DNA of 64,000 bases from an uncultured Chloroflexota bacterium (lineage in GTDB: Bacteria > Chloroflexota > UBA6077 > SHYK01): assembly GCA_964417895.1 (NCBI GenBank), contig CAYQJS010000004.1, positions 51,724 to 115,723 on the forward strand, written 5' to 3'. Of this stretch, positions 28,405 to 48,710 are shown piece after piece; positions within the stretch are counted from its first letter, which is position 1, and every line of letters begins with the position of its first letter. A program made the position numbers and the translations under genes. The notes under the pieces are model-generated. The model did not search any database and was not told the origin of the DNA. It saw only the letters and a program-made list of their open reading frames with translations.

Positions 28405-28660
28405 CCATCATGTCATGCTGAGTGCGATGCGCCGTCACGCCGTCACGCCGCGCCAGGGGCAGGTGAAACTGTCATGCTGAGCCGCAGGCGAAGCATCTGG
28501 GGTCGGCGTCGAGCTGCGAGCCTGCGAGCCGTGTTGTCGGCACCCCCAGACCCTTCGCTGTCGCTCAGGGTGACAATTCAGAGCAGAGCAGCCGAGGGCG
28601 AAACATCCGGAGCACCGGGGCCCCGATTCGTCGGGATGAAGTCTCAAGAATGACAGTATG
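28405..28660. repeat. cluster of family-1 type hairpin elements
   Basis: gtcatgctgagtgcgatgcg..., tgtcatgctgagccgcaggcgaagcatctggggtc / ccccagacccttcgctgtcgctcagggtgaca, ...gggatgaagtctcaagaatgacag. Confidence 0.75.
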
Positions 28661-38454: not shown

Positions 38455-38650
38455 GTCATCTTGAGGGGCCGCCAGGAGCGAAGAATCTCTCGACGAACGC
38501 CGATCCGGCTCTTCGACGGGATCCCTCGGGCGTCGCCCTCCCATGACAATACCGCTCGTCCTGAGCCTGTCGAAGGACAAGCCTGGGTCGGCAACCTTCG
38601 CCTCATGGCTCGACAAGGTCACCATGAGCGGTTTTCATGGGTTCGGGGCG
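38455..38650. repeat. two hairpin elements (family 1 and family 3) between asd and dapA
   Basis: gtcatcttgaggggccgccaggagcgaagaatctc / gggatccctcgggcgtcgccctcccatgac; gtcctgagcctgtcgaaggacaagc / gctcgacaaggtcaccatgagcgg. Confidence 0.8.
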
Positions 38651-41719: not shown

Positions 41720-44071
41720 CTACTGCGGTGCGCCGCCCTGCGGTGCGCCGCCGGCGTCGTCGCCGCGGGCCGGCTCGCGTCTGGGGCCGAAATCTCGATT
41801 GCCGGGACCCGAGCGGGGACCGCGGAAGGGCGGGCGGTCGCCGCCGTCACGGTAAGGGGGGCGGCGGTTCTCGTCGCGGAAACGTGGCCCGTCGCCCCGC
41901 GGTGGGCCGCCGTCGCCTCGCGGGCCGCCGAAGCCACCCTGCGGACGGCCCGTCCCCGCGCCCAGTGGCCGAGGGGGGGTCTGCTCACCGTTCGAAGGCG
42001 CGAGCAGGGCTCGACGCGACAGGTTGATGCGGCCCTGGCGGTCGATCTCGGTGACCAGCACGCTCACGTCGTCGCCGATCTTGACGATGTCCTCGACGCT
42101 GTTGACGCGGTAGTCGGCTAGCTCCGAGATGTGGACCAGCCCTTCCTTGCCGGGCAGGATCTCCACGAAGGCGCCGAAAGCCATGATGCGGGTCACCTTG
42201 CCGGCATAGACCGTGCCCACTTCCACGTCGCGTGTGAGCCCGTTGATGATGTCGATCGCCTTCTGGGCGTTCTCGGCGTCTGTCGAGCCGATCAGCACGG
42301 TCCCATCGTCGTCGATGTCGATGGTGCACTTCGTCTCTTCCGTGATGCGACGGATCATCTTGCCGCCGGGGCCGATGATGTCTCGAATGCGATCGGGGTT
42401 GATGGTCAGTTTGGTGATGCGCGGCGCGTAAGGCGAGAGCTGCGGCCGAGCCCGGTCGATCACCTCGAGCATCTTCCCCAGGATGAACATGCGGCCCTCG
42501 TGGGCCTGGGCTAGGGCCTGGCGCATGATCTGCGCCGTGATGCCCCGCACCTTGATGTCCATCTGGAGGCCGTTGATGCCCTGAGCCGTGCCGGCGACCT
42601 TGAAGTCCATGTCGCCAAGGAAGTCCTCGACGCCCTGGATGTCGGTCATGATGCGGTAAGTCCCGTCCTCGCCGGTGATCAGGCCCATGGCCACGCCGGC
42701 AACGGGCGCGCGGATCGGGACGCCGGCATCCATGAGGGCGAGAATGCCTCCGCATACGCTTCCCATGGACGTGGAGCCGTTGGATGAGAGCACCTCCGCC
42801 ACGAGGCGGATCGTGTAGGGGAACTCGTCCTCATCGGGGATCACCGGGAGCAGCGATCGCTCGACCAGGTGGCCGTGGCCGATGTCGCGGCGGGAGGGGC
42901 CCACCATGCGTCGAGTCTCGCCGGTGCTGTACGGCGGGAAGTTGTAGTGGTGCATGAACCGCTTGGATTCCTGGACGCCGATACCGTCGATGATCTGCTC
43001 GTCGGCCACGGTCCCCAGCGTCGCGACGCTGAGGACCTGGGTCTGGCCCCGAGTGAAGAGCCCGGAGCCGTGCGTGCGCGGGAGGACGCCCACCTCGCAG
43101 GTGATGGGGCGGATCTCCGTGAGTGATCGGCCGTCGGGCCGAAGGCCGCGCTCGAGGATCGCGCTGCGGACCGTCTCCTTCTCGAGGCCGTCGAAGATCT
43201 TGGCGACCTGCTTCTCTTCGTATCCTCGGCTCTTGAACTCCTCCGCCAGCTGAGCGCGAACGGCGGCGACATCGCTCTCGCGCTGCGCCTTGTCGGGGTT
43301 GAACATCGCGCGCTGGAGTCGGTCACCCATCCACTGGCGGACCTCGGTCTCTAGCTCGTGGTTAGTCTCTGCCGTCGGATACGACCGCTTGGGCTTGCCG
43401 ACGCGCTCCACCAGGCGGGTCTGCAGCGCCACAAGCTCCTTGATGGCCTCGTGCCCGAACTCGATTGCCCGAAGCATGGTGTCCTCGGTCAGCTCCAGGG
43501 CCCCGGCCTCGATCATCATGACGGCGTCGGCCGTCCCCGCAATTGACAGGTCGAGCCGGCTGTGGGCCAGCTCGGAGAGGGTGGGGTTGATGACGAACTG
43601 GTCGCCAATGTACCCAACGCGAACGGCGCCGACGGGCCCGTGGAAGGGGATGTCCGAGATGCTGAGGGCGGCCGAGGCGCCGACGATCCCCAGGGACGAT
43701 GGGTCGTTCTGCTGATCGGTGGAGAGCACTGTGATGACGATCTGGGTTTCGTTGCGGTAATCCTTCGGGAAAAGGGGACGCAGGGGCCGGTCGGTGAGCC
43801 GGGCGCTCAGAATCGCCGTCTCGGAGGGCCTCCCCTCACGCTTGAAGAAGCCGCCCGGGATCTTGCCCGCGGCGTACATCTTCTCCTCGAAGTCCACCGT
43901 GAGCGGGAAAAAGTCGATCCCCTCGCGTGGCAACCCCGAACTGACCGCGGTGGCCAGGACGACGGTGTCGCCATATCGGACGAGGACGGCGCCGTCGGCC
44001 AGGCCGGCGAGGCGCCCCGTCTCGAGGGTAAGCGTCCGCCCGGCGAACTCGATGGATACGGTCTCTGGCAT
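41720..44071 (-). CDS. pnp: polyribonucleotide nucleotidyltransferase (PNPase) with Arg/Gly/Pro-rich C-terminal tail
   Basis: Two RNase PH domains, KH and S1 ([32 protein letters not shown]); 783 aa. Confidence 0.95.
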
Positions 44072-45136: not shown

Positions 45137-45161
45137 CAGGGTGCTGAAACAAGGTTTGGGG

Positions 45162-45220
45162 CCGCTCGTGGTGAGCCTGTCGAACCACCTGGGTCCCTTC
45201 GACAAGCTCAGGGTGAGCGG
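45162..45220. repeat. family-3 hairpin (gtgagcctgtcgaa / ttcgacaagctcagggtgagc)
   Basis: ccgctcgtggtgagcctgtcgaaccacctgggtcccttcgacaagctcagggtgagcgg. Confidence 0.8.
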
Positions 45221-45350
45221 TTTCTTCGGCAGCCTGTTAGGCGGTTGTGCGTCACCTGTCCCCCGACTCGCCTGGGTTTTGGGGACGCCGCTCCGCTCGG
45301 GCGGCGGGTACAATGGCTCGCTGGCCGACATCACGTCAGGAGCAGGGCCG

Positions 45351-45737
45351 ATGCTGACTGAGGCTCAACAAAGGAGCCTGAACGACAAGGGCGTCGACTG
45401 GGCGCGCCTGGACTACGTCGAGGCGGCCGACGTGCTCGACGCCCTCGACCGTGGAAACGCGCTCGTCGTGGACACGAGGAAGCCAGAGAAGTACGAGTTG
45501 GGCCATTTCCCGGGCGCGGTGCACCGCCAGTCGGATGACCCGCTGTTACTGGCCCTCCCGCGCGAGTGGGCCATCTACACGTACTGCACCTGAGAGGATG
45601 AGTCCGCGGCGTCGCGTGCGGCGCTCACCCTTCTCAACGCGGGCTATGCGGATGTGCACGTCATCTGCGGGGGCCTCGATGCCCTGAACGTGGAAGCCGA
45701 CCGGCGCGGCGTGCATGCTGAGGCGGCTGCAACGTAG
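45351..45737 (+). CDS. rhodanese-like domain protein interrupted by an in-frame TGA (45591-45593)
   Basis: aggag SD + ATG 45351; ...VVDTRKPEKYELGHFPGAVH...AIYTYCT*EDESAASRAALTLLNAGYADVHVICGGLDAL...*; final TAG at 45735. Confidence 0.65.
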
Positions 45738-45743
45738 CCAAGG

Positions 45744-45804
45744 GTCATCCTGAGCTGAACGCGAAGGATCTCCCGCGAGATGCTTCGCTGCCGCTCAGCA
45801 TGAC
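45744..45804. repeat. compact family-1 hairpin
   Basis: gtcatcctgagctgaacgcgaaggatctcccgcgagatgcttcgctgccgctcagcatgac. Confidence 0.85.
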
Positions 45805-45825: not shown

Positions 45826-46026
45826 ATGGCCATCAAGGCGAGCATCAACTGGGATGAGTGTGAGGGGAACGGCGTGTGTGCGCGCGTGGCGCCCGAGATC
45901 TTCAGCGTGGACGAGCAGGGGAACTCGGACGTGCTGGTCGATGAGGTTCCAGCGAACCTGCGCGCCAAGGCGATGCTGGCCATGCGGCAGTGCCCAACGC
46001 AGGCGATCAGCGTCTGGGAGGAGTAG
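45826..46026 (+). CDS. small ferredoxin (single Fe-S cluster type)
   Basis: caggagg SD; INWDECEGNGVCARVAPEIF...MRQCPTQAI. Confidence 0.8.
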   Translation: MAIKASINWDECEGNGVCARVAPEIFSVDEQGNSDVLVDEVPANLRAKAMLAMRQCPTQAISVWEE

Positions 46027-46062: not shown

Positions 46063-46494
46063 TTGAATCCCGCACCCGTTGAGCGCTGCGTAGGCTGCGA
46101 CGAGCCGCCTCCGCCGGGGTTGATCGCGGGGGTACGTCAGTTCAACGACGGGCAGTACTTCGAGTGCCACGAGACCCTGGAAGCGTTGTGGAAGCGGGAG
46201 AGTCGTCCGCTGCGCGAGATGTATCAGGGCGTGCTGCAGATCGGAGTGGCCCTGCACCATCTGGAGCGCGGCAACCAGCGCGGCGCGCTTCGGCTGTTGG
46301 AGCGAGGCTTGAACCATTTGCGCTGGTTCTCACCTGCATGTCAAGGCGTGGATGTCAATCGGCTGATCGCCGAGGCGGAGTCCCTCGCGCGGTGGGTCGC
46401 GGCACAGCCCGAGGCCGTGAGCGCCGAAGAGTTGGCGCGGACTTTGCTCCCCAGGGTGCGAATGATGGGAGCCCGTTCCGGGGGATCGGGATAG
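46063..46494 (+). CDS. DUF309 domain protein
   Basis: GVRQFNDGQYFECHETLEALWKRE...YQGVLQIGVALHHLERGN. Confidence 0.75.
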   Translation: MNPAPVERCVGCDEPPPPGLIAGVRQFNDGQYFECHETLEALWKRESRPLREMYQGVLQIGVALHHLERGNQRGALRLLERGLNHLRWFSPACQGVDVNRLIAEAESLARWVAAQPEAVSAEELARTLLPRVRMMGARSGGSG

Positions 46495-46541: not shown

Positions 46542-46943
46542 ATGTTGACTCTTGAGCTCGCCGACCGTGTTCTCGCCGCCTGCCGTGAAAGGGCCACTGC
46601 CATGGGCGTGCCCGTGAGCATCGTCGTGGTCGATGAGGGAGGCCACATCGTCGGCGCCGCCCGCATGGATGGCGCGCGCTTCCTAACCGTCGACATCGCG
46701 TTCGGCAAGGCCCACGGCTGCATCGGCTTTCATCGCACCGGCACGGAGGTGGCTGAGTTCGGGCGCGTCGCGCCGGGGTTCGTCAGCTCGCTCGCGGCCG
46801 CCAGCCACGGGCGCTTCTTCGCTGCGCTGGGCTCGATGCGCGTTGGTCGAGATGGACAGGAGATCGGCGCCGTGGGCGTGAGCGGGGGCTCAGGCGAGCA
46901 GGACCACGAGATCGCGCAGGCGGGCGTGGACGCGGTGAGGTAG
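46542..46943 (+). CDS. GlcG/HbpS-like heme-binding protein (DUF336)
   Basis: VSIVVVDEGGHIVGAARMDGA...AFGKAHGC...GAVGVSGGSGEQDHEIAQAG. Confidence 0.8.
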   Translation: MLTLELADRVLAACRERATAMGVPVSIVVVDEGGHIVGAARMDGARFLTVDIAFGKAHGCIGFHRTGTEVAEFGRVAPGFVSSLAAASHGRFFAALGSMRVGRDGQEIGAVGVSGGSGEQDHEIAQAGVDAVR

Positions 46944-46949
46944 GGAGCT

Positions 46950-47378
46950 ATGGAGCTTGACCTGGCGGCGGCGAACCGGGTGATCGAGGCCTGCATCGTC
47001 GAGGGGCGGGCCGTCGGCCGAAATTTCAGCATCGTCGTGGTGGACGCGGCGGGGACATTTATCTCGGCTCAACGGATGGACGGCGCGGCGATCCTCACGT
47101 CACAGATCGCGTGGGGAAAGGCATACGGCTGCGCCGCGTTCCGGCGCGACGGGCCGCAGCTGGCCCAGATGGCCACGAACACGGCGTTCGTCAGCTCCCT
47201 CATCCAGATGACCGGCGGCCGGTTCGTGGCGGCGCTCGGCGCCTCGCGGCTCATGGACGGCGAGAAAGTGCTCGGCGCGGTGGGCGTGAGCGGAGCGGCA
47301 GCCGAGCAGGACCAGCAGGTCGGAGGCGGGAGCGCGCGCGTTCCAGCCCGGCCCAACGCCGTGAGCCGTGAGCCGTGA
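46950..47378 (+). CDS. GlcG/HbpS-like heme-binding protein (DUF336), paralog
   Basis: FSIVVVDAAGTFISAQRMDGA...AWGKAYGC...GAVGVSGAAAEQDQQ; the C-terminal ..NAVSREP is encoded by the heptamer array. Confidence 0.8.
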   Translation: MELDLAAANRVIEACIVEGRAVGRNFSIVVVDAAGTFISAQRMDGAAILTSQIAWGKAYGCAAFRRDGPQLAQMATNTAFVSSLIQMTGGRFVAALGASRLMDGEKVLGAVGVSGAAAEQDQQVGGGSARVPARPNAVSREP

Positions 47379-47523
47379 GGCGTGAGGGAGGAAAGGGATA
47401 GCGCGAGAGTAAGCCACAGATCCGATGCCAGCGCCGCCAGCGACGCCGATCCGACCCCTCCGGCCTCACGCCTCACGGCTCACGCCTCGCTTCAGGCCTC
47501 ACGGCCCGCGCCTCACGCCTCAC
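47358..47523. repeat. inverted heptamer arrays (GCCGTGA x4 / CCTCACG x~8) around a ~78 nt spacer
   Basis: gccgtga gccgtga gccgtga ggcgtga (47358-47385) versus cctcacg cctcacg gctcacg ... tcacgcc tcac (47464-47523). Confidence 0.9.
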
Positions 47524-48710
47524 TCTGGACCCGACCATACTTCCTCCTGCTGCTGGCAATCCTCCTCTGCTACGTGAGCCAGTGGCTGCAGATGGCAATC
47601 CTGCCCCTGTACGTGCACGACCTGGGGGCGTCCGTGCTCGTGGCGGGGTTCGTGCTGGCCGCGTTCAGCGTGACGGGCTTTGGTATGCGGCCGGTCGTTG
47701 GGTACTGGATCGACAGCTGGAGCCAGCCTGGTGTGCTCACGGTGGGGACCGCCATCCTTGCCGTAACGGGCACGCTGTTCGCCATCCCCGCGTTGTGGCT
47801 CTTGTTCATCGGCAACACGGCACGCGGGATCGGCTGGGCTGCCATCAACACGGCGGGGTACACGCTCCTCGTGCGAGTGGCTCCGACGTCGCGGCGGGGC
47901 GAGGCCTCCGGGTACTACACGGTCACCACCAACGCCGCGACGGCGCTCGCGCCGGTGCTGGCGCTGTGGCTCATCGCGCCGCCGGTTGGCAGCTACGTCG
48001 TGGTGTTCGTGCTCTCCGGCGTCGCGGCGTTGGGCGCGACGCTCGTTGTTCGCTTGCTGACCGCCGAGGGTGCGGCGCGGGAGACGCGCGCCGGGCCGAG
48101 GGGGAGCGGCCTGCGGCTGGCATCGTTCCTTGACCGGCGGGTCCTGCTGGCGTCGTTCTTGCTGCTCTGCCTGACACTGACGAGCCCCGCCACCACAGCG
48201 TTCGTGCCCCTCTACGCCCGGGAGCTGGGGATCCAAAACAGCGGGGCCTACTTCGCGGTTAGCGGGGCAGTGAGCATCCTGGCCACCATCGCGCTGGGAC
48301 GGCTATTCAACCGGGGAAGCCGAGGGGTGTGGCTCGTGCTGGGGTTCGGCCTGTCGCTCCTGGGGCTGGTGATCCTGTGGGCGGCCACGGGTCTGGAGCT
48401 CGTTGTGTTGTCGGGCGCTATCTATGCGCTGGGGTTCTCGATCCTGAGCACCATGCTGCTGGCGGTGGCCATCGACCTGGCCGACCCGCGACGACCCGGG
48501 GCGGCGATGGCGACGTTCTCCGCGTCGTATCAACTTGGGATGGGGCTGGGCGCGCCCATTGCCGGCTGGCTCATCGAGGTTTTCGGCTACGGAGGCATGT
48601 ACCTCGGCTCGATGGTGGCGGTTGGTGCGGGCCTGCTGCTCACTGTGGCCAACTGGCCGGCGCTGGGGAAGCAGACGGCCGGCGAGGCGCGACGCACGGC
48701 GGGGCAATAG
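47382..48710 (+). CDS. MFS transporter
   Basis: TM-rich from RPYFLLLLAILLCYVSQWLQMAILPLYV onward; the start is uncertain because the first ~45 codons are array and spacer sequence. Confidence 0.8.
   Translation: MREERDSARVSHRSDASAASDADPTPPASRLTAHASLQASRPAPHASLWTRPYFLLLLAILLCYVSQWLQMAILPLYVHDLGASVLVAGFVLAAFSVTGFGMRPVVGYWIDSWSQPGVLTVGTAILAVTGTLFAIPALWLLFIGNTARGIGWAAINTAGYTLLVRVAPTSRRGEASGYYTVTTNAATALAPVLALWLIAPPVGSYVVVFVLSGVAALGATLVVRLLTAEGAARETRAGPRGSGLRLASFLDRRVLLASFLLLCLTLTSPATTAFVPLYARELGIQNSGAYFAVSGAVSILATIALGRLFNRGSRGVWLVLGFGLSLLGLVILWAATGLELVVLSGAIYALGFSILSTMLLAVAIDLADPRRPGAAMATFSASYQLGMGLGAPIAGWLIEVFGYGGMYLGSMVAVGAGLLLTVANWPALGKQTAGEARRTAGQ

Follow-up and report, generated by a model that had tools for sequence, protein, structure and literature searches.

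A rhodanese-like gene of an uncultured Chloroflexota bacterium with an in-frame UGA predicted to encode selenocysteine

Rhodanese selenoproteins of both the C-x-U and the U-x-U type, in which U denotes selenocysteine (Sec), have already been catalogued. The CxU protein is included in reviews of 2022 and 2026 as "COG0607 form 2" and as "form 3, NF041203" (PMC13188914, PMC9312934), and a U-x-U rhodanese-related sulfurtransferase was reported from Olavius symbionts by Zhang and Gladyshev in 2007 (PMC1976440). The original prediction for the DNA analyzed here, which had been made from the letters alone, mentioned that Sec-containing rhodanese-like proteins had appeared in selenoproteome surveys, and the same publications show that this is correct. 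With these types on record, the gene that we describe from a 64,000-nucleotide stretch of an uncultured Chloroflexota genome (here referred to as the window) is a correct find rather than a surprising one. By its sequence, it is a divergent Chloroflexota branch, with an acidic loop (CTUEDE), of a family of rhodanese selenoproteins that is already known in CxC, CxU and UxU forms. We consider it very probable that positions 45351-45737 constitute a single, intact gene whose product is a one-domain protein of 128 residues with the rhodanese fold, and that its codon 81, a UGA, is decoded as Sec. The features of the gene are as follows.

45338-45342, plus strand: Shine-Dalgarno-like AGGAG, read directly from the sequence, 8 nt 5' of the ATG
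45351-45737, plus strand: rhodanese-like predicted selenoprotein gene, complete, with an ATG start and a TAG stop at 45735-45737; 128 residues with UGA-81 as Sec
45585-45587, plus strand: TGC codon of Cys79, at the canonical position of the rhodanese catalytic Cys and at the end of strand 74-78
45591-45593, plus strand: in-frame TGA, codon 81, predicted Sec (U81), at loop position +2, two codons past Cys79

The frame reads ...REWAIYTYCT-TGA(45591-45593)-EDESAASRAALTLLNAGYADVHVICGGLDAL... and is closed by the TAG at 45735-45737, just as the original prediction of a rhodanese ORF with an in-frame TGA two codons past the Cys had described it. The Pfam Rhodanese domain (PF00581) was matched with an E value of 4e-12 over residues 25-111 of the read-through product, and the rhodanese match thus spans the TGA, while the remaining two frames 3' of the TGA are closed within at most 48 codons. 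Similarity to the orthologues L041 and G003 (see below) starts at the Met of the window gene ("MLTEEQQRSL" in L041 and "PLTAEQRLNL" in G003), so that the longer in-frame start, GTG at 45141, is probably spurious. This 5' in-frame extension (45141-45350) contains a repeat-like sequence at 45198-45217, TTCGACAAGCTCAGGGTGAG, that occurs once more on the minus strand at 38555-38574, which is probably why the gene callers took differing and over-long starts (P0002, P0003). Altogether, the gene callers shorten the rhodanese gene to fragments of 80-139 residues (P0002, P0003, P0005).

We then compared the protein with the described types. The best NCBIfam match of the window protein (P0001) was NF041203 (rhodanese_LYCAU, "rhodanese-related (seleno)protein", an equivalog), with 38.3 bits. 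This is below the curated whole-protein cut-off of 115 bits, and a name that depends on this cut-off would therefore not be assigned to the window gene. The L041 protein obtained 42.3 bits and the G003 protein (P0004) 38.1 bits, while the wider Chloroflexota CxU/UxU relatives obtained 74-90 bits. Nevertheless, the motif of NF041203 is present as Y78-C79-T80-U81 within the PF00581 domain, and the rhodanese domain, the CxU and the one Sec of the "form 3" class are all found in the predicted product. The window protein also resembles "form 3" in having a single rhodanese domain with Tyr-Cys-x-Sec at the active-site loop, in having Cys homologues, and in a loop-helix segment two residues longer than the canonical one, with Glu for Arg at +5 and an S-x-R-A-A helix start. 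The two differ in several respects. First, the loop is C-T-U-E-D-E in the window protein and C-T-U-P-x-E in "form 3". Second, the C-terminus reads "GGLDAL.(D/N)EA..RR" in place of "GG..AW..AGYP". Third, the window protein possesses an additional N-terminal helix, "MLTEAQQRSLNDKGVDW". Finally, linkage to ferredoxin and DUF309 genes is found in the window clade alone. The U-x-U form (PMC1976440) is a member of this family too and has its two Sec at these same two columns, but the window gene has Cys instead of Sec at the first position and hence only one UGA.

The AlphaFold2 model, based on a 41-sequence alignment, has the rhodanese fold (mean pLDDT 93, pTM 0.86), with a strand at 74-78, a loop at 79-84 (C-T-U-E-D-E) and a helix from S85. 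Its Foldseek neighbours in the PDB are ordinary single-domain rhodaneses, which give no functional clue. The fold is common to the window protein and E. coli GlpE/PspE (PDB 1gmx; Foldseek TM about 0.66, rmsd 2.2 Å, 103 columns), and in both the central strand ends in a Cys, from which a loop of six residues leads into a helix; GlpE/PspE, however, possess neither Sec nor a second Cys at +2. In the MAFFT alignment with canonical rhodaneses, C79 stands opposite the catalytic Cys and a two-residue insertion comes later, whereas the gapless phmmer alignment to GlpE places U81 opposite the catalytic Cys65. We rejected Sec81 as the catalytic residue, because both the MAFFT alignment (41 sequences) and the model put C79 at the strand end, ahead of the six-residue loop and the Ser-capped helix. 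Given this succession of strand, Cys-X5 and Ser-capped helix, C79 would be the Cys of the catalytic position and U81 loop +2, and the model agrees with the original prediction on both as well as on the Ser at +6. The difference in length of two residues is located in or after the helix.

The active-site loop itself departs from the canonical one. Loop position +5 is Arg in canonical enzymes and Glu in the window protein and across the family, and in place of the canonical C-X4-R-(S/T) loop with its basic residues we found C79-T-U-E-D-E84-S85, an acidic loop, as had been pointed out from the letters. Because thiosulfate-binding basic residues are missing from it, the protein is probably not a thiosulfate:cyanide sulfurtransferase. 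The product would instead carry a Cys79-Thr-Sec81 pair that opens the rhodanese active-site loop; the acidic loop with Glu for Arg at +5 argues for a Cys/Sec pair rather than a thiosulfate sulfurtransferase. Judging from the motif and the fold, Cys79 and Sec81 may cooperate in redox chemistry or in the transfer of a chalcogen, and the intermediate could be, for instance, a selenenylsulfide or a persulfide/perselenide.

To look at the close relatives, we took the 4 matches found in a large protein collection and compared their contigs; with the window protein as query, no relative was found in the genome-contig collection. The close orthologues span three independent lineages only. Two relatives' gene calls, 100% and 98% identical (P0002, P0003), stop exactly at "...YTYCT", and that of a third, 61% identical, stops at "...YLYCT". 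G003, a Chloroflexota MAG, has a full-length protein (P0004, 62% identical) that reads "YCACEDDGG", with TGC (Cys) at the TGA codon. In L041, the 61% identical contig from a JGI soil metagenome, the TGA is present at the same codon, the frame reads ...YLYCT-U-EDEASASRAALTLLDNGY...ISGGLDAL, and the in-frame sequence 3' of the TGA is EDEASASRAALTLLDNGYSRVFVISGGLDAL. The near-identical strains L042 (98%) and L043 (97%), which come from other samples, also have a TGA at this codon. In short, the UGA aligns with Cys in homologues, both of its flanks are conserved, and the position holds Cys or Sec in the alignment of homologues that had been proposed as a check.

These contigs bear on two alternatives. 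One is a sequencing or assembly error at 45591, in which case the gene would really have a sense codon here, for instance TGC or TGG. The source genome is in fact a draft (5.66 Mb in 142 contigs, with the window on contig C4) with an estimated contamination of 5%, but the same-codon TGA recurs in the three independently assembled contigs L042, L043 and L041 from other samples (ENA ERZ27267942, JGI 3300018031, JGI 3300005529), and the chance of such an error appears next to negligible. The other is a recent nonsense mutation, which would make the gene a fresh pseudogene encoding an 80-residue fragment whose rhodanese domain lacks its C-terminal half. The gene calls P0002 and P0003, which end at ...YTYCT, speak for such a mutation, and so do the acidic loop without the canonical Arg and a local RNA fold that is statistically ordinary (see below). 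However, the TGA is shared with L041, and between the window and L041 we obtained a dN/dS of 0.271/1.102 (about 0.25) over 59 codons 5' of the TGA and of 0.251/1.386 (about 0.18) over 38 codons 3' of it. Since synonymous sites have reached saturation (dS about 1.1-1.4) and dN/dS past the TGA is about 0.18, the segment past the TGA is evidently translated and under selection, which is no weaker than in the segment 5' of it.

The maximum-likelihood tree points in the same direction. The window clade (support 100/99) falls inside the CxC/CxU/UxU family, and within it L041 (Sec) branches outside the pair formed by the window (Sec) and G003 (Cys), with support 97/65. The TGA is therefore older than the window lineage, and the tree dates it before the split between the window and L041. 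Moreover, a TGA occupies the same column across dozens of genera, and the genome decodes Sec. A fresh nonsense mutation is accordingly highly improbable, and the TGA of the orthologue, the selection and the tree together largely rule out both this mutation and an assembly error, mainly through L041. Of the two options that the original prediction had left open, Sec recoding with a C-x-U motif is thus preferred over a fresh nonsense mutation: the TGA is conserved at 61% identity, the 3' segment is under purifying selection and Sec genes are present. By its sequence G003 looks like a Sec-to-Cys replacement; SelA was not found in the G003 genome, which is 80% complete. As a separate observation, L043 (JGI 3300018031; gene 251-652, 97% identical) has a frameshift 5' of the TGA, and its protein call P0006 is out of frame past residue 39. 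Either the assembly is wrong at this point or the allele has truly been inactivated.

Although the window itself contains no Sec genes, as had been cautioned, the rest of the genome carries selA, selB, selD and tRNA-Sec, all of them above the curated cut-offs. The tRNA-Sec obtained 66 bits, above the Rfam cut-off, and was called tRNA-SeC with anticodon TCA by ARAGORN; selA obtained 572 bits, selB 322-352 bits and selD 372 bits. The SelD protein has an in-frame TGA of its own in "SHCAGUASKIGAA", a classical context, and hence the organism has at least one further gene in which UGA stands for Sec. The selD gene lies at G000:C2:219981-220904 on the minus strand (locus L009), with a strong hairpin 3' of its UGA. 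A general reassignment of TGA was considered and rejected, because the long ORFs in the window end in TGA more often than in either of the other stops. With this set of genes, SelA and SelD would make the Sec-tRNA, and SelB would deliver tRNA-Sec while bound to a hairpin that the mRNA forms immediately past the UGA. Two candidate hairpins, either or both of which could serve SelB-dependent insertion, were found at this position.

45600-45626, plus strand: the 9-bp hairpin of the original prediction, a candidate SECIS, with a bulged C at 45622 and an 8-nt loop at 45609-45616; -12.3 kcal/mol alone
45608-45625, plus strand: alternative 7-bp hairpin GGCGUCG/CGGCGCU, with the tetraloop CGUG at 45615-45618, in the register of the family hairpin

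The first hairpin exists as it had been drawn (9 bp, one bulge, 8-nt loop) and dominates the predicted ensemble of the window, with pair probabilities of 0.7-1.0. It is not conserved, since only 6 of its 9 pairs are kept in L041 and 5 of 9 in G003. The alternative hairpin, whose tetraloop has G26 and U27 (the U of the UGA being 1), reaches -9.9 kcal/mol both in the window and in L041 and is the dominant fold in L041; it lies in a 19-nt block, CGGCGUCGCGUGCGGCGCU, that is identical in the window and L041 and in the same register. The fold predicted as preferred in the window is thus not the one preferred in L041. In G003, the Cys form, 4 of the 7 pairs of the alternative hairpin are left (+6.1 kcal/mol), and owing to synonymous GCG-to-GCC changes neither hairpin is stable. 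Consequently, the Sec forms of the window and L041 have a stable hairpin with G/U in the apical loop 19-28 nt past the UGA, and the Cys form G003 has none.

A similar hairpin is found in the main family. In 25 Sec genes, a 7-bp helix is formed by positions 18-24/30-36 (the U of the UGA being 1) with a CGUGC loop, in which G26 never varies and U27 is found in all but one of the 25 genes. About this helix, 89% of the cells are paired, against at most 57% in shifted registers, and compensatory changes (CG-to-UA and GC-to-CG) occur at 18/36 and 23/31. The compensation at 23/31 consists of two nonsynonymous substitutions (SARAA to SVRAT) in G008 and G018 and keeps the pair, from C-G to U-A. Nevertheless, the Ser form G382 obtained 25 bits with the family covariance model, more than the window, and the Cys form G045 keeps a GCGCC/GGCGC stem; that the stem is kept in these non-Sec genes indicates that much of the helix is imposed by the codons for Ser-Ala-Arg-Ala-Ala (SARAA). 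When run over the 64 kb of the window, as had been suggested for the region past the TGA, the model indeed found its best match there (45591-45638, 11.1 bits), but the match is not significant (E 0.48). With this E value and a higher score in a non-Sec homologue, we set the covariance-model match aside as SECIS support. The 60-nt fold of the window gave z = -1.33 against shuffled sequences, 20 of 200 of which fold as well, and together with the E value this bears out the warning that hairpins are common by chance. Taken alone, the RNA evidence for Sec insertion in the window gene is weak.

In bacteria, Sec insertion is of limited efficiency and depends on selenium. This, together with the weak SECIS evidence and the different hairpins predicted for the window and L041, leaves room for a UGA that is read through without Sec, by near-cognate Trp or Cys or by leaky termination, or for truncated and full-length products whose ratio depends on selenium. 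Against such read-through stands the composition of the column, which alternates strictly between TGA and Cys, with Ser being rare, the signature of an exchange between Sec and Cys. SelA is also present in every tested genome with the TGA form, and hairpins with G in the apical loop stand 3' of the UGA in the Sec forms and not in the Cys orthologue. We therefore regard read-through of this kind as very unlikely and retain Sec81 as the reading of the codon.

The composition of the column was obtained from a wider search for rhodaneses with stop read-through, which covered 61 relatives at first and 401 genomes of the phylum afterwards. In the 401 genomes, the majority of the best matches to rhodanese have one TGA (YC[TA]U) or two TGAs (YU[TA]U) at the same columns, and dozens of Chloroflexota relatives have YC[TA]-U or Y-U-x-U there, the TGA column extending over dozens of genera. 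The pattern Y-C-[TA]-U-[PQR]-x-E-x-x-S-A-R-A-A...GG..AW..AGYP recurs in many genera, and Cys forms (YCTC) and one Ser form are found within the family. In alignments A2 and A3 the Cys79 column is invariant, and across the family the U81 column is TGA or Cys, rarely Ser. A profile search of the protein collection yielded 44 full-length all-Cys YC.CP forms as well as many calls that break off at "...WIITYCT" or "...IIFY". The tree splits canonical rhodaneses from the CxC/CxU/UxU family with support 97/97.

The U-x-U subgroup comprises G014 (L023), G039 (L026), G044 (L025), G047 (L028), G008 (L027) and G018 (L031). Its loci, which are rhodanese paralogues or orthologues, have a pair of in-frame TGAs separated by one codon (Y-U-[TA]-U-P) and just one hairpin after them, and SelA is present in all 5 of the U-x-U genomes tested. 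The nearest neighbour of the window clade in the tree is one of them, G014. A further locus, L035 (G046:C92:929-1159), encodes an apparently exported rhodanese, which has a signal peptide with a lipobox-like LLAAGC; its in-frame TGA is located elsewhere in the loop (YCTGAT-U-GSS), at +5, the position of the canonical Arg.

Downstream of the rhodanese gene we found the following genes.

45826-46026, plus strand: small single-cluster ferredoxin (Fer4_15/Fer4_13; PF13459, E 4e-14)
46063-46494, plus strand: DUF309 gene (PF03745, E 3e-25)
46566-46943 and 46950-47378: a tandem pair of HbpS-like (PF03928) paralogues, directly past the DUF309 gene and followed by an MFS transporter

Upstream are pnp and rpsO on the minus strand and a gene of the glyoxalase family. 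All members of the window clade (L041, L042, L043 and L022/G003) show synteny of the ferredoxin gene with the rhodanese gene, and the order rhodanese-ferredoxin-DUF309 is kept in L041, L043 and G003 (L022), whereas the short contig of L042 contains the ferredoxin only. Within about 1.5 kb of 34 loci of the wider family, neither neighbour was found (0 of 34). From the motif and the synteny, one may speculate that the conserved ferredoxin is a redox partner of the rhodanese.

Several other sequence features of this region were recorded. The spacer from the stop of the rhodanese gene to the start of the ferredoxin gene contains an intergenic palindrome, GTCATCCTGAGC...GCTCAGCATGAC (45744-45804), which also occurs at 1102-1198 and 28471-28574. 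Its 12-mer has 10 matches in the window with at most 1 mismatch, against 0.55 expected, and the palindrome resembles a terminator or an element of the REP or MITE kind. Short repeats of the CCTCACG/CGTGAGG type fill 47360-47524, between the second HbpS-like gene and the start of the MFS transporter; they form inverted repeats of 26-30 nt, 90% complementary, and give rise to many spurious "RLTAHG" ORFs. The polynucleotide phosphorylase (41720-44071, minus strand) has a low-complexity C-terminal tail of about 90 residues rich in Gly, Arg and Pro.

The window clade can be recognized by its C-[TA]-[U/C]-E-D-[ED] loop, by the lack of the AW..AGYP tail and by the ferredoxin and DUF309 genes downstream. 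One might go further and take it for a functionally distinct and undescribed subfamily, a ferredoxin-linked selenenylsulfide redox module on the scaffold of a rhodanese fold, in which Sec was lost to Cys in G003, the one lineage in which SelA was not found, but we think this unlikely. The main value of the finding lies in annotation, as a 128-residue predicted selenoprotein is shortened by gene callers and, like its Chloroflexota relatives, scores below the NF041203 cut-off, so that it may be under-counted in Chloroflexota. For the family, it adds an acidic-loop branch with conserved ferredoxin/DUF309 surroundings and a clean Sec-to-Cys exchange across three lineages.
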